64,000 nucleotides of DNA, from NCBI RefSeq assembly GCF_041248615.1, contig NZ_CP158426.1. One strand, given 5' to 3'. A program made the position numbers and the translations under genes. Below, one piece after another: positions 20,431 through 63,842 of this stretch (positions within the stretch are counted from its first letter, which is position 1; the number at the start of each line of letters is the position of its first letter). Source of the stretch: Escherichia coli (GTDB lineage: Bacteria > Pseudomonadota > Gammaproteobacteria > Enterobacterales > Enterobacteriaceae). The notes below the pieces were generated by a model. That model did no database searches. It was not told the origin of the DNA and saw only the letters and a list, made by a program, of their open reading frames with translations.

Positions 20431-20520
20431 TTTATTAACGCTATTGTAAAACTGCCGTTTTTCCTCGTTTACAACGCGTGCGCTGGACATTACCATCCTC
20501 CTCTGCGATTTATCATCGCA

Positions 20521-20599
20521 ACCAAACGACTCGGGGTGCCCTTCTGCGTGAAGGCTGAGAAATACCCGTATCACCTGATCTGGATAATGCCAGCGTAGG
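20521..20599 (+). repeat. attL: 79-bp direct repeat identical to 33186..33264, a copy of the thiM TPP-riboswitch aptamer sequence (without the 3' strand of P1) joined to the thiM promoter side
   Basis: Exact 79/79 identity: ACCAAACGACTCGGGGTGCCCTTCTGCGTGAAGGCTGAGAAATACCCGTATCACCTGATCTGGATAATGCCAGCGTAGG. The sequence is the conserved thi-box/TPP aptamer. Confidence 0.85.
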
Positions 20600-20684
20600 T
20601 TGCCAACATTCTGATTAGTATTCATGTGGTTACATTTCTTTTTGTCCGTGTGTAATGCACCTAATGTACAAAAAGAGCGTAAAC

Positions 20685-21986
20685 ATGAGGTACAAAACTC
20701 TTCCATACACGTTTCAAAGAAACGGTAATTACTATCTACAGATTCGGCTTTCGAATGGTCGGATGTATAAAAAATCACTTCTCACTGACAGCTATCGTGA
20801 AGTCTCTGCTTTGATGATTGGTGTTGCTCCGTACATTCCTTTTGTTAAATCATTAGCCATCACAATCCCGATGTTTGATGCCTTTGTTTCAAACCTGATT
20901 ATGTCAAAACTTAGGGCTGTAAAAGTTCCGCTGCTATCACATCAGTCGGTAATTACCCCTGCTACATTCGAGGAACCAGCGACACAAGCCGAACCGCAAA
21001 ACATGCTAACTCTTTCTGATGCGTGGGCTATGTATAAAGCGGAAAAGGGTAAAACATGGACAAAGTCGATCTCAAGGGCGAATGAGCGTTACATGGAAGT
21101 CTTGATGGTTGTCTTGGGAGAGACAACTGACGTAGTTGCGATTTCTAAGCAGGACATCAAGCAGGTGATGGAAGTTGTTGAGAATTTGCCTAAGCGTGTT
21201 GTCCAACCGTATCGCTCAATGAACATCCAGCAACTGATTGAATGTGATGATGTATCACCGAATGAGTTAGTAGGAGTGGAAGCCATTCATAAGCATCTCA
21301 AAATCTACAAATCGCTTTTCAAGACTTTTCTAACAGAAAACAAAGATATTTTGATTAAATCCCCAACTGATGGGGTAGTAGCAGCACCATCTAAAGCAAG
21401 GTTTGGAGCATACAGTTCGGCGGAGATGAAGAAGTTTGTAGAGTGGGCACTTAAGCAGCCAGATGGCTGGCAGAAGTGGATAACATTGTTGTTGGCATAC
21501 ACAGGAGCCAGAAGGGGAGAAATTGCCAAACTGGAAAAATCACAAATAAAATATGATGAGGATAGCCATCGGTATTATTTCCTGATTGCAGAAGGAGGGC
21601 AGGGGAAAACCGAAAATGCTACCCGACAAGTAGTGATACACCCTAAGTTGATCGAATGGGGTTTCATGGAATACGTTGATCGCCAGTGGAAAGAACGGAT
21701 TTTTTCAGAAGTGGCTGGTACAAACATGACGAAGATCGGTAAAGAATTTGCTGATGTGCGTGACCAGCTTGACATTCCGTACTTAGACGATTTTGGACAG
21801 CGGAGGCTTTTGCATAGCATTCGTCATTCTGTTTGCTCTACTGCGATGGCTGGATGGGTAAAGAACATCTTGCATCTGCAACAAACAGTAGGCCATGAGA
21901 AAAGTGGAGGGATCACTAAACGCTACTTACATACGTTCCCACTATCATCAATTTGTTATGTTATTGATGGGATTAGTTGGGTCTGA
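20685..21986 (+). CDS. int: Tyrosine integrase of the island (433 aa from 'MRYKTLPYTF'; the provided ORF starts at 20655)
   Basis: C-terminal catalytic signature 'LHSIRHSV' (H-x-x-R) and '...KRYLHT' (Tyr); directly adjacent to the attL repeat. Confidence 0.8.
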   Translation: MRYKTLPYTFQRNGNYYLQIRLSNGRMYKKSLLTDSYREVSALMIGVAPYIPFVKSLAITIPMFDAFVSNLIMSKLRAVKVPLLSHQSVITPATFEEPATQAEPQNMLTLSDAWAMYKAEKGKTWTKSISRANERYMEVLMVVLGETTDVVAISKQDIKQVMEVVENLPKRVVQPYRSMNIQQLIECDDVSPNELVGVEAIHKHLKIYKSLFKTFLTENKDILIKSPTDGVVAAPSKARFGAYSSAEMKKFVEWALKQPDGWQKWITLLLAYTGARRGEIAKLEKSQIKYDEDSHRYYFLIAEGGQGKTENATRQVVIHPKLIEWGFMEYVDRQWKERIFSEVAGTNMTKIGKEFADVRDQLDIPYLDDFGQRRLLHSIRHSVCSTAMAGWVKNILHLQQTVGHEKSGGITKRYLHTFPLSSICYVIDGISWV

Positions 21987-22203: not shown

Positions 22204-23106
22204 GTGGATATGTTACTACCAATACGAGTTCATAAACGATTTCTAACTTTATTTAAGACTTTGCAAATTGACGATTGCCCACCGCAATCAACTTTAAATA
22301 TTCATGTACTTAATATCGAAAGCAATGAATTTATATACTGTAAATTAGTTGAAGAATTACGTGACATAATAATTACTTATGTACATTCGAATAGAAGGCT
22401 TGAGGAGTTTAAGGAAAGTTATCCTTCGTATAGCCCTAAACCTTTTTTCGAAGCAATACAAAAATTTCGCAATTATACGTCAAACGAAGGTGAGTTAGGT
22501 GAACTGCTTTTATACGCTTTTCTTGAAACAGGACTAAATGCTCCGAAATTACTTTCCAAAATGCAATTGAAAACAGATTCTAATGATTACATTAAGGGTT
22601 CTGATGGTGTACATCTGTTAGAATTAGATGATGGTTATCAATTAATATTTGGAGAATCAAAGCTCTATGCCGATCTTTTAGAAGGTGCTCGAGAAGCGTT
22701 TGATTCTATTTTAGATTTTAAAAGTAATGGAATGGCATTTGAAAGAGGGCTGATAGATACACACGTTATAAATGAAATGGTTTCAGAAGAAGGTTATGAG
22801 AAAATAAAATCAATTCTTCTTCCTTCTTCTGGCGATGATGGGCCAGATCTTGATTTATCCTTTGGTATATTTCTTGGTTTTGAATTGAAAATAGATAGCT
22901 CACAGTTATCATTGAAAAACAAAGAGTTTAGAGATTGGGTTAATGAGTCCGTGAAACAACATGCTACTCGCGTGGTCAGTACGATACGAAGGAAAATTAT
23001 TAATCATAAATTATATGGTCACGAATTCCACATATATATAGTTCCTTTTACCGATATTGATGTTACACGAAAAAAATTAATTCATGAAATGCTAACAATT
23101 AAGTGA
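22204..23106 (+). CDS. PD-(D/E)xK nuclease-like protein, candidate HamA (DUF1837-like) of a Hachiman-type defence system
   Basis: Motif 'HLLELDDGYQLIFGESKLY' (D...E-x-K). Its stop overlaps the start of the downstream helicase gene (ATGA-type coupling). AT-rich island cargo. Confidence 0.5.
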   Translation: MDMLLPIRVHKRFLTLFKTLQIDDCPPQSTLNIHVLNIESNEFIYCKLVEELRDIIITYVHSNRRLEEFKESYPSYSPKPFFEAIQKFRNYTSNEGELGELLLYAFLETGLNAPKLLSKMQLKTDSNDYIKGSDGVHLLELDDGYQLIFGESKLYADLLEGAREAFDSILDFKSNGMAFERGLIDTHVINEMVSEEGYEKIKSILLPSSGDDGPDLDLSFGIFLGFELKIDSSQLSLKNKEFRDWVNESVKQHATRVVSTIRRKIINHKLYGHEFHIYIVPFTDIDVTRKKLIHEMLTIK

Positions 23107-25691
23107 ACACTATGAATGAATTAAATTCAAGTAAAAACATTCATTTGGCAGCTCGTCTTGCAGATGATGCTTTTGAAAGTGCTTATTTTAAAGAAATCAA
23201 TAAGTTTATAAGTGGTTTATACAATTACAGTTTATTTAACTGCGATTCAGATGTTAGTCTCTCCGAGAGTGATAACAATAAAATAGCACACGCTTTGCGT
23301 TTTGCAGATATATTTTCACATTCTTCAAAAGAAAATCATAGATCATGTGCATTTGAAATTATAAGTAGAATAGCCTTATTAAAAAAACATGATCCTTATT
23401 TTAAATTTATAGGTACTGCTGTTATTAATCGGCTTGGGGTTTATGCAGCAGAAAAACTCATATCAAAAGGGGTAAAATTACCCTTAGATAGAGAAGTTGA
23501 TTCTATTATTAAAAAATCAGTTCAGAAAACAGATGAAGATGGAGTATATTTCACTGATAAACAACATGAGTTATACAAACTTTTAAAAAGTAGCAAAACA
23601 ATTAGTTTTGCTGGTCCCACTTCGATGGGAAAGTCATTTGTTATTAATGCATACATTAAGGAAATAACTCTTAAAAAAGAGCTTAAAAATATAGCTTTAA
23701 TTGTTCCTACACGGGCTTTAATAAGCCAAAATGCACTTAAGTTAAAAATTGATATTGCATTGTATAAGAATGAAAGCCCTTATAAAGTTGTTACGACATC
23801 CTACATTATTAATGGTGATGAAAGTAAAAATAAAGGCTATATTTTTATTCTCACCCCAGAAAGGCTGGTTAGTCTCATAAGCACTATTCCTGGACTAATG
23901 ATTGATTATGTTTTTGTAGATGAAGCTCAAAAGTTAACAACAAAAAATGATTCGAGGAGTCTTGTTACTTATTCAGCTATAGAGCAAACAATTAGTAAAA
24001 ATCCTGAGGCAAGATTATTCTTCTCTTCACCTAATTTATCTAATCCTGAAATATTTAATATTTTGTTTGATAGAAAAGACGCTTCGGTATATAGAAATAC
24101 AGAAGGTGCAACTACTCAGAATATGTATTTTATTGATCTTTTAAATAGCAGCTTTAGCTATGTTAATACCGAGAAAAGGACGCTTGAAAAAATAGATGAG
24201 ATCTCTAATACTTACACGAATACAAATGATGTTATCTATAAATTAAATAATGGTAAAAGTAAAATAATTTATTGTGGGGGGATAGAAAGCACGCTTGAGA
24301 GAACACGTAGCTTTATCAATTATCTCAAAATTAATAAGAAAAAAAGAAAGCATTTAAATTTAGAAATATCTTCTGAGATAAGAAACTTTGTTCATGATAA
24401 CTATGAACTTGCAGAAGCCATCAACTATGGTGTTGCTTTCCACTTTGGAAACTTGCCTCAATCGATTCGAGATTTAATTGAGCATCATTTCAAAATAGGA
24501 AATATTGACTATCTATTCTGTACATCAACCCTACTTGAGGGAGTCAATTTACCTGCAAGATCCGTATTTATTCTTACGCATAAAAAAGGCCCCAGTCCAT
24601 TAGAGTCGGTTGATTTTTGGAATCTGGCTGGGAGAGCTGGGCGATTATCTATGGAATTGTCAGGGGATATTTTTTGTATTAGGGATGATAATAAGCTTTG
24701 GAATAAAAAAGCTGTTGATAATATCCTTCTGTCTGACAAAAATAACATTTCATTAAAGCCAAGCTTCTATATTGAAGACGAAAAAAGATTGAACGATTTA
24801 CACCATATAATTACGACTGGTAAAACAGGGAATATTAAAAATGCTGAGTTCCTTAGAACTTTAGGAGATATGATAAGAATAGACACTCTGAGGGATTCTA
24901 AAGAACTTCCTCTTATTAGTTATTTCCAAAGCAGTGGAAAATCAGAAATTTTGTTAAGTGCAGAAAAAAGCACTGAAAATATTACCATGCCAATGAATAT
25001 CCTTTTGGCAAATAGTCATATTGCGATTGATTCGCAGTATCATGCTTTTAAAAAAATAAAAAGCCTTACAGTTAAGGAACTGAAATTATCATGGCAGCCT
25101 ACATACGAAGAAATTAAAGAAAAATTGAATTTGATATTCGATATTTACCAAGTTGAAAAGTTTGCAACAGGTAGAGAACGTCTTTATTTAAATTCAATTC
25201 CATATTATGCAGTATTACTGTTTCAATGGATTCGTGGAAATAGTCTACAGGAAATTATCTCGGGGGCAATTGCTTATAGAAAGAACAAAAGTATATATAT
25301 TAAAAATACACCTGTTCTTTTTGACAGCGAAAACCCAGCTCATTTAACTGCATTAGTTAATGAAACTATAAAAGACATTGAGTTGCGTGTAGGTTACCAG
25401 TTACAAAATTATTTTTCACATTACTGTCAGCTTCTGAATTATGTGTTACAAGGAAATCCAGGGGCAAACTGGTCTCAGTTCATTGAGTTTGGCTCTAATG
25501 AGCCAATAGTATGGCACCTACAAATGATGGGCTTTTCAAGGGATAGTGCAGTTTTTCTCAAGAAGAATTTTTCAAAACATCTTAAACTTGATAATGAAAT
25601 GAATAAACTCATCATAATGGATAAGGAACTGATCAAGCGTTCTTTCAAAAAAGATGGACTACATTACTTAGAAATCCAATCGTTATTATAA
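23103..25691 (+). CDS. SF2 helicase (862 aa), candidate HamB of a Hachiman-type defence system
   Basis: Walker A 'AGPTSMGKSF', motif II 'VFVDEAQKL', motif III-like 'FSSPN', 'TSTLLEGVNLPA' and motif VI 'LAGRAGR'. Translationally coupled to the upstream nuclease-like gene. Confidence 0.55.
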   Translation: MNTMNELNSSKNIHLAARLADDAFESAYFKEINKFISGLYNYSLFNCDSDVSLSESDNNKIAHALRFADIFSHSSKENHRSCAFEIISRIALLKKHDPYFKFIGTAVINRLGVYAAEKLISKGVKLPLDREVDSIIKKSVQKTDEDGVYFTDKQHELYKLLKSSKTISFAGPTSMGKSFVINAYIKEITLKKELKNIALIVPTRALISQNALKLKIDIALYKNESPYKVVTTSYIINGDESKNKGYIFILTPERLVSLISTIPGLMIDYVFVDEAQKLTTKNDSRSLVTYSAIEQTISKNPEARLFFSSPNLSNPEIFNILFDRKDASVYRNTEGATTQNMYFIDLLNSSFSYVNTEKRTLEKIDEISNTYTNTNDVIYKLNNGKSKIIYCGGIESTLERTRSFINYLKINKKKRKHLNLEISSEIRNFVHDNYELAEAINYGVAFHFGNLPQSIRDLIEHHFKIGNIDYLFCTSTLLEGVNLPARSVFILTHKKGPSPLESVDFWNLAGRAGRLSMELSGDIFCIRDDNKLWNKKAVDNILLSDKNNISLKPSFYIEDEKRLNDLHHIITTGKTGNIKNAEFLRTLGDMIRIDTLRDSKELPLISYFQSSGKSEILLSAEKSTENITMPMNILLANSHIAIDSQYHAFKKIKSLTVKELKLSWQPTYEEIKEKLNLIFDIYQVEKFATGRERLYLNSIPYYAVLLFQWIRGNSLQEIISGAIAYRKNKSIYIKNTPVLFDSENPAHLTALVNETIKDIELRVGYQLQNYFSHYCQLLNYVLQGNPGANWSQFIEFGSNEPIVWHLQMMGFSRDSAVFLKKNFSKHLKLDNEMNKLIIMDKELIKRSFKKDGLHYLEIQSLL

Positions 25692-25999: not shown

Positions 26000-26575
26000 T
26001 CAGCGTTTGATGCCGCTAATACTGGCAAGCATTTCTTTCTTCACACGAAAAACTGTAGCCCTGCCGCAATCACATAACTTTGCTATCTCGTCTGGTGTAT
26101 TCTTCCCGGCCTGTAACATATCGATAATCTTGTTATGTAGCTCTTTGTTCTTTTGCTTGCCCTTGTACTTCTTAGCCTCTTTAGCAAGAGCAATCCCCTC
26201 ATTGCGACGAGATGCGATCATACCCCGCTCAAATTCTGCAGCGGCTCCCATCATGGTTAGGATAAGGCGTGATTGTGGGGAATTATCAAAACTCATAGAG
26301 TTTGCAAGGAATTGAACAGTGATTCCACGAGCCACGAGGTTATCAATCATTTCCAGCAAATCGCGGGTATTACGTGCAAGGCGATCAATCGAGTGAGTAA
26401 CGAGCGTGTCACCTTCGCGGAGGTGTGAAAGCAGGTTCAACAATTCAGGTCTTTCGCTGGTGGACTTACCTGATTCTTTCTCTGCCACAATTTTGTCACA
26501 AACAGGTTCCAGCACTGCCAACTGACGCTCAAGATTTTGATCCTTTGTTGAGACTCTCGCGTAACCAAAAATCAT
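26000..26575 (-). CDS. Serine recombinase (resolvase/invertase family, 191 aa)
   Basis: N-terminus 'MIFGYARVSTKDQNLERQ' carries the catalytic Ser motif of resolvase/Hin-family enzymes; C-terminal helix-turn-helix region. Confidence 0.9.
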   Translation of the reverse strand: MIFGYARVSTKDQNLERQLAVLEPVCDKIVAEKESGKSTSERPELLNLLSHLREGDTLVTHSIDRLARNTRDLLEMIDNLVARGITVQFLANSMSFDNSPQSRLILTMMGAAAEFERGMIASRRNEGIALAKEAKKYKGKQKNKELHNKIIDMLQAGKNTPDEIAKLCDCGRATVFRVKKEMLASISGIKR

Positions 26576-29552: not shown

Positions 29553-31028
29553 TCATTTTTTGCTTTTTTGTACTTCCTTTTCGTATTTGTTCCACATAGC
29601 CTTTTGCTCTTCGGGACTGAGTGCTGTATTACCACTGGCAAGAAACACCTTGAACGCTTCTAACTCAAGCCCTGGGTTGCGGCTTTTCCAGCGGCGAAAA
29701 CGCTTAGCGTGATTATCATCAAGAGTGAAACGCTTTTGCTTATTCTTTGAACCTTGCGGCCTGCCTCTCGACCTCTGCTCATCATCAATACCGATATCTA
29801 TATACTCAATATTATCTGTAAGAGATCTGGCTTGCCATTCATCAAAAACATAAACAGTCTGTGTTTCAGTACTGTCAAAATCCCTTGAAATTCCTCGTAG
29901 TACGAACTGGTGTAAACTTTCGTACTCCCTCGCAACATGTATCGCCTCGCCGTCAATCTCAAAGAACAATTCGCACTGTTTAGCCTCTGTTTCAGAGGGA
30001 CGCATACAAGCGAGCCAGACGCACGTGAGCAAGTGTTGGTACTGGTTAAACCCTCTGGCATCCGGGCTTATCTCTGTGCCGTTTTTGAGGCTCTGAGAAT
30101 CGCTTTTGTTCTTCGTCCAGTAGAAATCCTGTCCCTCAAGTTTTTTATCAATAAATGAGTATATTTTTTGTACTTTATCAGGGTTATTAGTCTTCCATGT
30201 CTTCGATAGTTTTTGATTTTTTGAGAAGTAATAAACCTTTAATCTGTCTTTGAGAGCTGTTTTTCGTGTCAGTAATCCTCCAAGTTCAGTACTTTCAAAG
30301 AGTTCTTTATTGCCTTTATAGATCAATGAATTTTCGAAATTAGCTCCGAGAAAGGTGATTGATACGTCTTTGTACTTACTGAGATCTTTCCATGCGGTAA
30401 TATTAAGCTGTTCCTTTTTCGCATCGGTAAAGTACTCATTATTCATGATGAACATATCATTTTCGTTAATTGCTGGTAGCTGGTTCAAAATATTCTTCAG
30501 TACTTCCCCTTGTATTTCTGGTTTTCTTTCTGCCGCAATATACATATTTTTATCATCTAATGTCAGTACATTGTGTATTAATGAATTAAGAATTGTATTT
30601 TTTATATTAGTATCACCCTCATTAATATTCTGAAAAGAGTGAAAATTAGTAACGTCGTCAATATAAATATTACAGTCAGATAACAATTCAGGAGGAATTT
30701 TGAAAAACGTTTTATCTGTTATGAGTAATGTTTTATTACTTCCAGATGAAAGAAAGTTAATAACTGAATTAATAACACTTTCATCTTTTGGTACTGTATC
30801 TGTAATTATATACTCGCAATTATTGATTTGCTTTGCTGTCTGCTTAATAAGTTCTTGAGTGTTCTGTACTAAAATATATTTTTCAGTACTGTTATTGATT
30901 ATATTGCATATAGCAGTAGTTTTACCTGAACCACAAGGGGCGGAGACATACTTAAATTTATTATAAATAGGTGTGGGATTAATCATTTGTACACGCTCCA
31001 TATTGATTAATGTAGAAAGGTCAGCCAT
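29553..31028 (-). CDS. P-loop NTPase (491 aa) with C-terminal AT-hook-like motif; candidate Rep/helicase-like replication or mobilisation protein
   Basis: Walker A 'SAPCGSGKTTAI' near the N-terminus; Walker B-like 'IYIDDV'; C-terminal 'SRGRPQGSKNKQKR' (AT-hook GRP core). Confidence 0.6.
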   Translation of the reverse strand: MADLSTLINMERVQMINPTPIYNKFKYVSAPCGSGKTTAICNIINNSTEKYILVQNTQELIKQTAKQINNCEYIITDTVPKDESVINSVINFLSSGSNKTLLITDKTFFKIPPELLSDCNIYIDDVTNFHSFQNINEGDTNIKNTILNSLIHNVLTLDDKNMYIAAERKPEIQGEVLKNILNQLPAINENDMFIMNNEYFTDAKKEQLNITAWKDLSKYKDVSITFLGANFENSLIYKGNKELFESTELGGLLTRKTALKDRLKVYYFSKNQKLSKTWKTNNPDKVQKIYSFIDKKLEGQDFYWTKNKSDSQSLKNGTEISPDARGFNQYQHLLTCVWLACMRPSETEAKQCELFFEIDGEAIHVAREYESLHQFVLRGISRDFDSTETQTVYVFDEWQARSLTDNIEYIDIGIDDEQRSRGRPQGSKNKQKRFTLDDNHAKRFRRWKSRNPGLELEAFKVFLASGNTALSPEEQKAMWNKYEKEVQKSKK

Positions 31029-31370
31029 TCCAGTGTCTGGCCTTTCGTTGTTTTAGTTATTAGTCTTTTTGAGTTGCGACAACTGCAAGAGAATGTTTAT
31101 AAACAAGTGAAATAAGCAGTTTTACCGCCTCAAAAGCTACAGTCAGTTTCGTAATTATTTTCGAAAGCATCGTAAATTTCACTTCGCTATCTTCTATGCA
31201 AAAATTAGCAGCCTGAGGTATTTAATGATTGAGATGTGGCCTGTTGATAAGAGGGTTTGTATTGCTTGTTCTGCTCTTTGTTAATTTGTGACTTATTCCT
31301 TTCACAATGATCGGCTATGTTTGATAACTCTGTTAGGAAATCACCTATGGCTACCATATTGGATTTGCCC

Positions 31371-32276
31371 CTATATTTCCAGACACCTGTTATCACTTAA
31401 CCCATTACTGGCCTGCTGCCGCAGATATTCCCGTGGCGAGCGATAACCCAGTGCACTATGCGGATGCCATTCGTTATAATGCTCGAACGCCTCTGCAAGG
31501 TTCTTTGCTGCCGTTAACCCGTCTGGTTTAGGCATGATACTGATGTAGTCACGCTTTATCGTTTTCACGAAGCTCTCTGCTATGCCGTTACTCTCCGGAC
31601 TCCGCACCGCCGTGTTCTTCGGTTCAAGCCCCAATATCCGGGCAAACTGCCGTGTTTCATTAGCCCGGTAGCATGAACCATTATCCGTCAGCCACTCTAC
31701 TGGAGACGCCGGAAGCTCGTTGCCGAAGCGGCGTTCCACCGCTCCCAGCATGACGTCCTGTACTGTTTCACTGTCGAAGCCGCCCGTAGTGACTGCCCAG
31801 TGCAGTGCCTCACGGTCACAGCAGTCCAGCGCGAACGTGACTCGCAGTTTTTCTCCGTTATCACAGCGGAACTCGAACCCGTCAGAGCACCATCGTTGAT
31901 TGCTTTCTTTCACGGCCACTTTGCCAGTATGTGCCCGTTTCGATGGCGGTACAGCGGTTTTTCGCTCAAGCAACAGCGCATTCTGGCGCATGATCCGGTA
32001 AACACGTTTGGCATTGATCGCAGGCGTACCATCAAGTTCGGCCTGTCTGCGAAGCAGCGCCCATACCCGACGATAACCATACGTGGGCAGCTCTCCGATA
32101 ACATGGTGTATACGGAGAAGCACATCCGTATCATCTGAGTGACGGCTGCGGCGACCATCTTTCCAGTCATCGGTTCGTCTGAGAATTACGTGCAACTGCG
32201 CACGCGACACCCGGAGACAACGGCTGACTAAGCTTACTCCCCATCCCCGGGCAATAAGGGCGCGTGCGCTATCCAC
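31371..32276 (-). CDS. insD: IS2 transposase OrfB (InsD, 301 aa)
   Basis: Translation '[30 protein letters not shown]...' and DDE transposase region. Confidence 0.9.
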
Positions 32277-32599
32277 TTTTTTGCACGCCCGTATTCAACG
32301 GCTTCTTTAAGGAGTTCATTTTCCATCGTTTTTTTGCCGAGCAGGCGCTGGAGTTCTTTAATCTGCTTCATGGCAGCAGCAAGTTCAGAGGCAGGAACGA
32401 CCTGCTCTCCTGCGGCCACAGCAGTAAGACTTCCCTCCTGGTATTGCTTGCGCCAGAGAAATAACTGGCTGGCTGCCACACCGTGTTGCCGGGCAACAAG
32501 GGAGACCTTCATTCCCGGTTCAAAACTCTGCTGAACAATAGCGATCTTTTCCTGTGTAGTACGCCGTCTGCGTTTCTCCGGTCCTAAGACATCAATCAT
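32234..32599 (-). CDS. insC: IS2 OrfA (InsC, 121 aa from '[18 protein letters not shown]')
   Basis: Helix-turn-helix protein overlapping insD in the -1 frame, as in IS3-family elements. Confidence 0.9.
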
Positions 32600-33073
32600 C
32601 TGCTCTCCAATGACTAGTCTAAAAACTAGTATTAAGACTATCACTTATTTAAGTGATATTGGTTGTCTGGAGATTCATGGGGCCAGTCTACATATAATCA
32701 TGTTCATCTTCTAATTCTTTAAATTTTAATAGAGAAATCTCTTCATAATATTCTTTCATTTTCATATAAATCACCTTTTATTTTTTTGTTGTTAACACAG
32801 GTTTTTTTCTGCACTACACATTATAGCACATAGAATTAATTCGTTTCATTTTCTGTCAATGAAATAGAGTAAAGATAAATGCTTTTATAAAGCACTTATC
32901 ACATCCGTTGCCTTGCTATATATAAAAAGTTCTCCAAACTATACTGGTGTATATTTTCCCCATCAGATACAGTTGTTTTTAAACATTACAATGTTGGATT
33001 CTTGGTTCCAAATAAATCGAGCAACTATTAGTGTTTCAAAATGAAGTTGGGAGCTATTCCTTAATTCGTATGA

Positions 33074-33102
33074 GGTACAAAATGGGGTACTCGGTGGGGT
33101 AC
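33074..33102 (+). promoter_or_regulatory. Three direct repeats of GGTAC at 12-bp spacing (aGGTACaaaatgGGGTACtcggtgGGGTACag), ~85-110 bp from the att core; candidate integrase/Xis arm-type sites. A 13-mer ATGAGGTACAAAA (33069-33081) recurs at the int start codon (20685-20697)
   Basis: Seen directly. Confidence 0.35.
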
Positions 33103-33185
33103 AGCGTGTATAAGTGACGTCACCACGGGTAAACTTGCATCGGCGAGCAACTTAACCTAAGCTGACAAAAATTAAGAGAAATGTA

Positions 33186-33317
33186 ACCAAACGACTCGGG
33201 GTGCCCTTCTGCGTGAAGGCTGAGAAATACCCGTATCACCTGATCTGGATAATGCCAGCGTAGGGAAGTCACGGACCACCAGGTCATTGCTTCTTCACGT
33301 TATGGCAGGAGCAAACT
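33186..33317 (+). ncRNA. thiM TPP riboswitch (aptamer plus expression platform) preceding thiM; its first 79 nt (33186-33264) form the attR direct repeat
   Basis: Conserved thi-box sequence CUGAGA...ACCUGAUCUGGAUAAUGCCAGCG; its 3' continuation 'GAAGTCACGGACCACCAGGTCATTGCTTCTTCACGTTATGGCAGGAGCAAACTATG' carries the anti-Shine-Dalgarno/Shine-Dalgarno platform. Confidence 0.85.
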
Positions 33318-34106
33318 ATGCAAGTCGACCTGCTGAGTTCCGCGCAATCTGCGCACGCGTTACACCTTTTTCACCAACATTCCCCTCTTGTGCACTGCAT
33401 GACCAACGATGTGGTGCAAACCTTTACTGCCAATACCTTGCTGGCGCTCGGTGCATCGCCAGCGATGGTTATCGAAACCGAAGAGGCCAGTCAGTTTGCG
33501 GCTATCGCCAGTGCGTTGCTGATTAACGTTGGCACGCTGACGCAGCCACGCGCACAGGCGATGCGTGCCGCCGTTGAACAGGCAAAACGCTCTCAAACAC
33601 CCTGGATGCTTGATCCAGTAGCGGTGGGTGCACTCGATTATCGCCGCCGTTTTTGTCTGGAACTTCTGTCTCATAAGCCAACCGCCATACGTGGTAATGC
33701 TTCGGAAATCATGGCATTAGCTGGCGTTGCTAATGGTGGACGGGGAGTGGATACCACTGACGCCGCAGCTAACGCGATACCCGCTGCACAAACACTGGCA
33801 CGGGAAACTGGCGCAATCGTCGTGGTCACTGGCGAGATGGATTATGTTACCGATGGACATCGTATCATTGGTATTCACGGTGGCGATCCGTTAATGACCA
33901 AAGTGGTAGGAACTGGCTGTGCATTATCGGCGGTTGTCGCTGCCTGTTGTGCGTTACCAGGCGATACGCTGGAAAATGTCGCATCTGCCTGTCACTGGAT
34001 GAAACAAGCCGGAGAACGCGCAGTCGCCAGTAGCGAGGGGCCAGGCAGTTTTGTTCCACATTTCCTTGATGCGCTCTGGCAATTGACGCCGGAGGTGCAG
34101 GCATGA
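33318..34106 (+). CDS. thiM: Hydroxyethylthiazole kinase ThiM (262 aa)
   Basis: Length, position after the TPP riboswitch, 4-nt overlap with thiD. Confidence 0.95.
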
Positions 34107-34903
34107 AACGAATTAACGCTCTGACGATTGCCGGTACTGATCCGAGTGGTGGTGCGGGGATTCAGGCCGATCTTAAAACCTTCTCGGCACTTGGCGCTTA
34201 TGGTTGCTCAGTGATTACTGCACTGGTGGCGCAAAATACCCGTGGCGTACAGTCGGTGTATCGCATTGAGCCTGATTTTGTCGCCGCCCAGCTCGATTCG
34301 GTGTTCAGCGATGTGCGAATCGATACCACTAAAATCGGTATGTTGGCGGAAACCGATATTGTTGAAGCGGTGGCAGAACGGTTGCAACGTTATCAGATCC
34401 AAAACGTGGTACTCGACACCGTTATGCTGGCAAAAAGCGGCGACCCGCTGCTTTCACCTTCGGCGGTTGCTACGCTGCGCAGTCGATTATTGCCACAGGT
34501 TTCATTAATAACGCCAAACTTGCCCGAAGCTGCTGCCTTGCTCGACGCGCCACACGCGCGCACCGAACAGGAAATGCTGGAACAAGGGCGATCGCTGTTG
34601 GCGATGGGCTGTGGCGCAGTGCTAATGAAAGGTGGTCATCTGGATGATGAGCAAAGCCCGGACTGGCTGTTTACTCGCGAGGGAGAACAACGGTTTACCG
34701 CACCGCGCATTATGACCAAAAACACCCACGGCACTGGTTGTACGCTCTCTGCGGCGTTGGCTGCACTACGCCCGCGCCATACAAACTGGGCTGACACCGT
34801 ACAGGAGGCAAAAAGCTGGCTTTCATCGGCGTTAGCCCAGGCCGACACGCTGGAAGTTGGTCACGGTATTGGTCCGGTTCACCACTTCCACGCCTGGTGG
34901 TGA
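34103..34903 (+). CDS. thiD: Hydroxymethylpyrimidine/phosphomethylpyrimidine kinase ThiD (266 aa)
   Basis: Length, translational coupling with thiM, PfkB-like fold motif 'GTGCTLSAA'. Confidence 0.95.
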
Positions 34904-49451: not shown

Positions 49452-49538
49452 ATAAAAAATAAGCCCGTGTAAGGGAGATTACACAGGCTAAGGAGGTGGT
49501 TCCTGGTACAGCTAGCATTTTATGGGTTATGTTTTTCA
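49452..49538 (-). ncRNA. cyaR: CyaR (RyeE) Hfq-dependent sRNA
   Basis: The minus-strand sequence reads GCUGAAAAACAUAACCCAUAAAAUGCUAGCUGUACCAGGAACCACCUCCUUAGCCUGUGUAAUCUCCCUUACACGGGCUUAUUUUUU. This matches CyaR as I recall it, including the terminator hairpin and U-tail. Confidence 0.85.
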
Positions 49539-49624
49539 GCGAAACGGATGATAACCTTAATAAATGCAGCTGTATGTGATCGGTTTCTAAGAATTTTCCA
49601 TCCGGGAAAAATAATCGAAATTAA

Positions 49625-62856: not shown

Positions 62857-63000
62857 GAAACGGGAAAGCCCCTCCCGAGGAAGGGGCCTTAAATAAGGAA
62901 AGGGTCATGATGAAGCTACTCATCATCGTGGTGCTCTTAGTGATTAGCTACCCAGCATACTAAGACTACCAGGGCGGGGGAAACCCCGCTCTACCCTCAC
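62857..63000 (-). ncRNA. sib: Sib-type antisense sRNA antitoxin, copy 1 (coordinates approximate)
   Basis: Sib RNAs are ~140 nt and encoded fully antisense to ibs. A minus-strand terminator hairpin is at 62868-62888. The 5' end is inferred, not seen. Confidence 0.4.
62907..62963 (+). CDS. ibs: Ibs-family type I toxin, 18 aa (MMKLLIIVVLLVISYPAY)
   Basis: AGG Shine-Dalgarno upstream; MMK...hydrophobic...Y pattern characteristic of Ibs peptides. Confidence 0.75.
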   Translation: MMKLLIIVVLLVISYPAY

Positions 63001-63184
63001 TCCTGAAAGTATGCCTTCACGATAAGATTGTCAATCTGCAGGCTTTGCAGTCTGCGATCCTGCCAGCAAATATTCTTTGCGAGACGTTACGCAATAATCA
63101 CACTGGAAACTATTTTATCCGCAAGTCAGCGATAGACTGCATACAGGGCGAAAGGAGGTAAGCCGACGATTTCAGCGGGACGCT

Positions 63185-63328
63185 GAAACGGGAAAGCCCC
63201 TCCCGAGGAAGGGGCCTTAAATAAGGAAAGGGTCATGATGAAGATACTCATCATCGTGGTGCTCTTAGTGATTAGCTACCCAGCATACTAAGACTACCAG
63301 GGCGGGGGAAACCCCGCTCTACCCTCAC
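63185..63328 (-). ncRNA. sib: Sib-type antisense sRNA, copy 2 (approximate)
   Basis: By homology with unit 1. Confidence 0.4.
63235..63291 (+). CDS. ibs: Ibs-family type I toxin, 18 aa (MMKILIIVVLLVISYPAY)
   Basis: Second repeat unit; same arrangement. Confidence 0.75.
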   Translation: MMKILIIVVLLVISYPAY

Positions 63329-63512
63329 TCCTGAAAGTATGCCTTCACGATAAGATTGTCAATCCGCAGGCTTTGCAGTCTGCGATCCTGCCAGCAAATA
63401 TTCTTTGCGAGTCGTTACGCAATAATCACAGAGGAAACTATTTTGGTCACGCGTTAGCGATAGACTGCATTCAGGGCGAAAGGAGGTAAGCCGACGATTT
63501 CAGCGGGACGCT

Positions 63513-63660
63513 GAAACGGGAAACCCTCTCCCGGAGAAGAGGGCTTTTAATAAGGAAAGGGTTATGATGAAGCACGTCATCATACTGGAGATACTCTTAG
63601 TGATTAGCTTCCAGGCTTACTAAGAACACCAGGGGGAGGGAGAAACCTCTCCCTAACCCT
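63513..63660 (-). ncRNA. sib: Sib-type antisense sRNA, copy 3 (approximate)
   Basis: By homology with unit 1. Confidence 0.35.
63564..63623 (+). CDS. ibs: Ibs-family type I toxin variant, 19 aa (MMKHVIILEILLVISFQAY), IbsA-like, with Glu in the hydrophobic core
   Basis: Third, diverged repeat unit. Confidence 0.65.
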   Translation: MMKHVIILEILLVISFQAY

Positions 63661-63842
63661 CACTCCTGAAATTATGTCACTCCGCCCTTAGTGTCAATCG
63701 ACGGCTCTCCGTTCTTGCGAGGCGAATAGCAAAATTTTCTGCGCCGCCGGGCCTAATTCTGAAAGTTTCTTCGTTTGCTCTTATTTCATTATTGCAATCG
63801 GTATGATACCGGGCCTCAATAATTCTCTAAGAAAGGATTTCT

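Follow-up and report, generated by a model that had tools for sequence, protein, structure and literature searches.

The closest described counterparts of the locus studied here are the dusA-specific islands, which insert in the 5′ end of dusA, supply the gene with a new 5′ end and present putative −10/−35 elements after insertion too (PMC4482086; Farrugia et al. 2015). The island analysed here lies in a 64,000-nucleotide stretch of the Escherichia coli contig NZ_CP158426.1 (hereafter, the window) and resembles them in several respects. In both systems, a tyrosine integrase directs insertion to a conserved host gene at its 5′ end, the island replaces that end, the original one is found at the far boundary, and putative −10/−35 elements stand upstream both before and after integration. 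The target of the thiM island is different, being a non-coding riboswitch aptamer and not a coding 5′ end, and the replaced part comprises a promoter, a leader and half of an RNA structure, which pairs with the half belonging to the host. The thiM island appears to work like the dusA islands, but its target is not dusA, so it is not a member of that group.

Islands targeting tRNA and tmRNA genes usually restore the 3′ end of the RNA gene and need no promoter. In common with these islands and with the lambda-type attP, the thiM island has a conserved structured-RNA target, restored by the element's copy of the displaced part, and direct-repeat arm sites on both arms that are unlike the core. 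The thiM island, however, replaces the 5′ side of its target and so must bring a promoter. As in the lambda-type class of islands, the integrase lies beside an att junction, the target is repeated at both ends and arm motifs occur on both arms. The outward-facing promoter predicted at the element end opposite the integrase has a parallel in Pcirc of ICEclc, reportedly described by Sentchilo et al. in 2003 and said to be an outward promoter driving the integrase only in the excised circle; the thiM-island promoter would differ in also serving the host operon after integration.

An E. coli B-specific island beside thiM carries the restriction gene EcoBLMcrX (PMC5487053; Fomenkov et al. 2017); the main text of that paper mentions neither an integrase nor the riboswitch. 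This island occupies the same chromosomal site, and its thiM-proximal end is about 75% identical to the right arm in the window, but it is a relic, the left part of which has been removed next to IS1. According to PMC5499598, in which no promoter information was found, the thiM riboswitch acts via translation control and Rho-dependent termination. The insertion leaves intact the host expression platform needed for this control. No report of a riboswitch, that of thiM included, as an integrase target or attachment site was found in the literature, the coverage of which was incomplete, so that an earlier description is possible. The comparisons below support a conserved island family that appears to target the thiM riboswitch and to carry a cassette of promoter and half-aptamer. 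Riboswitch aptamers are among the most conserved bacterial non-coding sequences and, like tRNA genes, would make good landing sites for mobile elements. The family would exemplify how an element can enter the 5′ side of an operon harmlessly, by means of a portable promoter and half of an RNA completing the half of the host.

The island and the two riboswitch copies

The island, about 12.7 kb in length, lies between rcnR and thiM and interrupts the thiM TPP riboswitch. Its boundaries, the flanking repeats and the two aptamers were read directly from the window, where the following features were located:

20468..20496, plus strand: native K-12-type thiM promoter, TTTACA-17-TACCAT (9/12 in the consensus scan)
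20520..20599, plus strand: left-hand (attL) copy of the 80-bp identity block, corresponding to the 5′ part of the thiM TPP aptamer
20522..20617, plus strand: truncated TPP aptamer at attL (RF00059, 58 bits, threshold 54.3 bits)
33185..33264, plus strand: attR copy of the 80-bp identity block
33187..33283, plus strand: complete thiM TPP aptamer, reconstituted, at attR (RF00059, 71.2 bits, P1 intact)
33239..33264, plus strand: probable core and crossover region CCTGATCTGGATAATGCCAGCGTAGG, in P4-P5 of the aptamer (family comparison)
33318-34106, plus strand: thiM, intact (open reading frame list and RefSeq annotation)
34103-34903, plus strand: thiD, intact (open reading frame list and RefSeq annotation)

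The two copies of the identity block (20520-20599 and 33185-33264) match perfectly in direct orientation and are spaced 12,665 bp apart. The original prediction had placed the native thiM promoter far upstream of its operon at attL, and this was borne out: the promoter at 20468-20496 now faces the integrase gene of the island. The strain NRZ14408 is 100% identical to the window over the region examined.

A TPP aptamer (Rfam RF00059) was found at each of the two junctions. The aptamer at attL stops just 5′ of the 3′ strand of helix P1, and island DNA takes the place of that strand and of the expression platform; three of the five P1 pairs are non-standard. An alternative closing helix, GCAACC/GGUUGC, was considered for this copy and rejected as a coincidence, being absent in relatives. 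In the RefSeq annotation, the truncated attL aptamer before the integrase is labelled as a TPP riboswitch, with P1 broken and no thiamine gene downstream.

The position of the crossover was derived from the related islands. The core CCTGATCTGGATAATGCCAGCGTAGG is common to attL and attR at every locus, and its 5′ flank differs between them in L004, L008, L016 and L022. At several loci, the two aptamer copies diverge on the 5′ side of CCTGATCTGG and agree fully on its 3′ side; the differences affect the P3 loop (EC96, L006, L009 and L022) or consist of GTAATA versus GTACCA (L008). Where the copies differ, the attL aptamer is of the host type, and the attR junctions of EC96, L006, L009 and L022 have a leader and P3 of the island type. 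This pattern suggests a crossover within the last ~26 bp of the aptamer (33239-33264). The two copies in the window are identical to each other, so the placement here is carried over from the family, by which at least 33185-33238 would be island-borne. The island-borne part at attR would accordingly comprise the leader, the 5′ strand of P1, P2 and P3. All attR aptamers have the canonical fold, and the P3 changes in the island-borne half are compensatory (U-A to C-G, U-A to A-U and C-G to U-A), which indicates selection on a transcribed, working riboswitch. Hence, the riboswitch described earlier as "retained" is indeed present as a complete aptamer at attR, but it seems not to have been merely retained, its 5′ half having been supplied by the island.

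Some right arms appeared to contain a reverse-strand TPP riboswitch. This candidate was rejected, being an inverted copy of part of the core that occurs in islands of the second integrase clade only and has no Rfam match. The inverted copy, cccgctggcatgatccagaacaggg, lies about 110 bp upstream of the attR core (L012, 18269-18291) and occurs also in L009, L017, L021, L022 and L033.

The integrase and the putative arm-type sites

The integrase gene and the repeats on both arms are located as follows, together with a palindrome in the right arm:

20662..20673, plus strand: P′1, putative arm-type site, degenerate here, TAATGTACAAAA (alignment of 15 attL arms)
20685..21986, plus strand: island tyrosine integrase, 433 aa (PF00589; PHROG 1 integrase, 2e-25; RefSeq annotation)
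20686..20697, plus strand: P′2, TGAGGTACAAAA, putative arm-type site that overlaps the start codon of the integrase (ATG at 20685)
33071..33106, plus strand: three contiguous 12-mers, P1-P3, putative arm-type sites (TG[A/G]GGTAC...)
33114..33123, no strand: perfect palindrome GTGACGTCAC, no function assigned

The integrase start is 85 bp from the attL junction. A protein search returned 455 integrase clusters, with only generic names (tyrosine recombinase/integrase). None of the phages in the collection searched encodes this integrase, and a phage origin was rejected on account of this absence. An arm-binding N-terminal domain was sought in residues 1-110, which gave no Pfam or PDB sequence match; the AlphaFold model of the integrase, built from 21 close homologues (81-86% identical), had a mean pLDDT of 43, too low for use.

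In the right arm, sites P1-P3 read TGAGGTACAAAA, TGGGGTACTCGG and TGGGGTACAGCG, with GGTAC at 33074-78, 33086-90 and 33098-102 in exact 12-bp phasing. RGGTAC occurs 24 times in 128 kb (both strands), and the chance expectation for three in phase is about 1e-6 to 7e-6 per window; the phased repeats are far beyond chance. In the left arm, the alignment of 15 attL arms revealed T[G/A]AGGTACAAAA at the position of P′1, ~68 bp beyond the junction in relatives. A further TG[A/G]GGTACA motif, P′2, lies 24 bp downstream of the P′1 position, over the integrase start codon; P′2 is in coding sequence, and its conservation may in part reflect coding constraint.

In intact islands of the first integrase clade, from many genera, two or three 12-mers with TG[A/G]GGTACA stand at the same position. 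These repeats have decayed in relics devoid of an integrase, nine relic modules keeping none or one. Islands of the second clade, whose integrases share ~65% identity with the first, carry three G[GC][AC]CACA repeats spaced 12 bp apart in the same layout, and ATGGGACACA at the integrase start codon. The layout is thus kept while the motif changes with the integrase clade, as predicted for arm-type binding sites, and the GGTAC 12-mers are very probably such sites for the integrase.

The phased GGTAC repeats had been pointed out earlier as part of an attP arm bearing protein-binding sites. The repeats themselves stand as described, and the attP-arm reading is upheld by comparison, through the copies in the other arm, the conservation in intact islands, the decay in relics and the counterpart in the second clade. 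The palindrome from the same prediction does exist, at 33114-33123 (33113-33122 in the earlier numbering), but fails as a feature: perfect 10-bp palindromes are at chance level in the window (62 seen against 62.5 expected), and GTGACGTCAC is absent from all related arms compared.

The candidate promoter at the island end

Two features are relevant to the question of how thiM is transcribed:

31360-32690: IS2, 1331 bp (transposase on the minus strand; 5-bp target duplication CATAT)
33135..33163, plus strand: candidate outward-facing sigma-70-type promoter, TTGCAT-17-TAAGCT (predicted start ~33169-33172)

The candidate consists of a −35 element TTGCAT (33135-33140), a 17-bp spacer and a −10 element TAAGCT (33158-33163), one nucleotide from the position of ~33136-33164 proposed earlier for the same hexamers, which are thereby confirmed to be present. 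It matches 6 of the 12 consensus positions, keeping TTG and TAnnnT, and was left unlisted by the consensus scan, the cut-off of which was 9/12. In a rough scan with a position weight matrix, the scores of which are approximate, it outscored every other plus-strand site in the terminal 200 bp of the island; chance alone would give about 0.7 sites of equal score in that length. A count of the core pattern TTGNNN-17-TANNNT over 128 kb gave 14 instances, i.e., ~0.007 per 60-bp interval. Taken by itself, the sequence argues only weakly for a promoter, and it is the comparison of related arms that lends it substance.

Both the CTTG of the −35 element and the TA..CT of the −10 element are kept in 19-20 of the 20 first-clade arms, relics included, at a fixed distance from the aptamer; the 20 arms come from fairly close relatives, and their agreement is partly due to shared ancestry. 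The nine relic modules with none or one of the GGTACA sites still hold the promoter hexamers. Conservation of the spacer almost equals that of the hexamers. The −35 element is overlapped in most relatives by an inverted repeat, GCTTGC-N4-GCAAGC (equivalent to 33131-33152), which could be a binding site for a regulator; the window has an imperfect version of it (CTTGCATCGGCGAGCAA).

In Franconibacter, Trabulsiella and Atlantibacter, the best site upstream of attL or thiM is TTGC[A/T]T-17-TAnnCT, in sequence with no detectable homology to the arm. The island promoter therefore looks like the thiM promoter of another enterobacterium. The predicted leader before P1 measures ~23 nt from the island promoter, versus ~25 nt from the native one.

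Other sources of thiM transcription were considered. The right-hand 7 kb of the island contains minus-strand genes only, and there is no co-directional gene within 7 kb upstream. IS2 was rejected as a source: it lies 445 bp upstream of the −35 element (33135), carries a minus-strand transposase and does not occur at the EC96, BL21 and O157 loci checked. Read-through from the native promoter into thiMD was rejected too, with 12.7 kb and several convergent genes in between. A search of the literature and supplements for transcription start site data on strains with the island module, including BL21 and O157:H7, yielded nothing usable. In BL21(DE3), a second, stronger promoter-like sequence, TTGATA-16-TAATTT, is found ~120 bp further upstream (L003, 19945-19972) and is not conserved in the window.

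The island family, its relics and thiMD transcription

Integrase homologues of 55-85% identity were found at 32 loci in ~18 genera of Enterobacterales. Nearly all of these loci have the aptamer core ACCTGATCTGGATAATGCCAGCG 90-110 bp upstream of the integrase, and many have a second copy of it within 10 kb. Other E. coli strains have related islands at the site occupied in the window: EC96 contains a complete one with its own integrase and two aptamer copies. The relic island of BL21(DE3) has IS1 at its truncated left end and lacks everything from rcnR through attL and the integrase, and that of O157:H7 is reduced to 2.2 kb, the sequence diverging from K-12 right after the rcnR stop codon. At both loci, the native promoter is absent, and the riboswitch and intact thiMD are kept behind the island module, which is thus the sole remaining upstream sequence. 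The native promoter segment is present in 5010 of the 5426 complete E. coli genomes and lacking in 416; the island-type module is found in 579 of the 5426, an integrase homologue in only 221, and an O157-type relic module of at least 99% identity in 313.

De novo synthesis of thiamine depends on thiD, and thiamine is not needed for the growth of E. coli B or O157:H7. With the native promoter gone, thiMD intact and these lineages independent of thiamine, the relic end would have to drive the transcription of the operon. BL21 and O157:H7 thus apparently express thiMD from island-derived DNA, and the sequence of the K-12 thiM regulatory region is inapplicable to them. Judging by the conservation of the module, the island-end promoter would be a built-in trait of the whole island family and not an adaptation particular to this strain. 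The earlier proposal that the island end supplies transcription to thiMD thereby gains comparative support, from the hexamers in 19-20 of 20 arms, their persistence in relics and the loss of the native promoter in BL21(DE3) and O157:H7.

Taken as a whole, the explanation that we consider likely is that the segment 33000-33320 represents the attR junction (P arm) of an integrative island of 12.7 kb, whose tyrosine integrase uses the thiM TPP riboswitch as its site of recombination. The end of the island would carry, in left-to-right order, the arm-type sites (33071-33106), the promoter (33135-33163) with a short leader, and its own 5′ aptamer half. Crossover in the last ~26 bp of the aptamer would join this cassette in register to the P1 3′ strand of the host, the expression platform and thiMD, and the operon would stay transcribed and TPP-regulated despite the native promoter being 12.7 kb away at attL. 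The boundaries, the repeats, both aptamers, the conservation throughout the family and the loss of the native promoter in the B and O157:H7 lineages are observed; what the scheme predicts is that the integrase binds the repeats, that the promoter is active, and exactly where the crossover falls.

The same promoter may have a different principal client. In the excised circle, the right arm is joined to the left, and transcription from the promoter would cross the 5′ half of the aptamer and then the core before reaching the integrase; the island-end promoter might then mainly drive the integrase in the circle, with thiMD transcription as a by-product. We regard this as a possibility of some weight, although below an even chance. 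The promoter does face outward, and the integrase is the first gene past the junction. Moreover, no conserved, reasonable sigma-70 site was found from the junction to the integrase start in ten attL arms, so the integrase is probably read from whatever promoter lies upstream, which in the integrated state would be that of the host thiM, by way of the P1-less aptamer. However, the hexamers survive in relics that have lost both the integrase and the arm repeats (the O157:H7 type in 313 genomes, L023, L033, L035 and L036), which points to selection for thiMD expression, and the structure-preserved 5′ aptamer half on the island has no evident use for integrase expression. Service to the circle and to thiMD can also coexist. 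A full promoter swap, in which the host thiM promoter and the P1-less aptamer precede the integrase, the island promoter drives the integrase only in the excised circle, and ~8% of complete E. coli genomes (including B/BL21 and O157:H7) use a promoter of horizontal origin and a chimeric riboswitch for thiMD, seems rather doubtful; if true, it would wire integrase expression, island stability and transfer to the host thiM promoter and possibly to thiamine status.

Alternatively, the block 33130-33165 might be an accessory site for recombination, bound by IHF, an excisionase or a regulator, with thiMD transcribed from elsewhere. The conserved spacer, the weak hexamers and the inverted repeat GCTTGC-N4-GCAAGC overlapping the −35 element in most relatives would fit such a role, but the block persists in integrase-less relics, the last 200 bp hold no better plus-strand site, the nearby island genes are all on the opposite strand, and the stronger BL21 candidate TTGATA-16-TAATTT is not conserved in the window. 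The accessory-site explanation is unlikely. Least probable by far is that the features are due to chance and that thiMD is silent or poorly expressed, island-bearing strains depending on external thiamine. The hexamers alone are indeed statistically unremarkable, yet chance falls far short of explaining the GGTAC repeats, different genera share the architecture, and both the window and long-established relic lineages have thiM, thiD and the riboswitch intact.

Some members of the family show traces of exchange and accumulation. In E. coli Res13-Sevr-PER07-33 (NZ_CP062811.1), the right arm is 100% identical to that of the window, and the integrase region is only 83.5% identical; this contrast indicates mosaic islands that arose via recombination between family members. 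Enterobacter nematophilus (NZ_JAPKNE010000002.1, L020 and L009) has tandem islands at the thiM riboswitch, with integrases of the two clades and three aptamer copies.

Besides IS2, the island cargo in the window includes two hypothetical genes and the following:

22204-25691: Hachiman-type defence pair (HamA, PF08878, 1e-62)
23103-25691: DEAD/Helicase_C helicase, taken to be HamB
26000-26575, minus strand: resolvase-family gene
29553-31028, minus strand: ResIII-type helicase

With Hachiman here and EcoBLMcrX in E. coli B, the thiM site is a hotspot for defence cargo. IS2 splits a 74-codon open reading frame that starts at 32765 (minus strand); the protein rejoined across IS2 gave no Pfam or PHROG match. 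As ordinary E. coli features unrelated to the island, the Rfam search of the window also detected three tandem Sib antitoxin RNAs (62892-63697), CyaR (49457-49542) and an OrzO-P antitoxin RNA (1258-1331).
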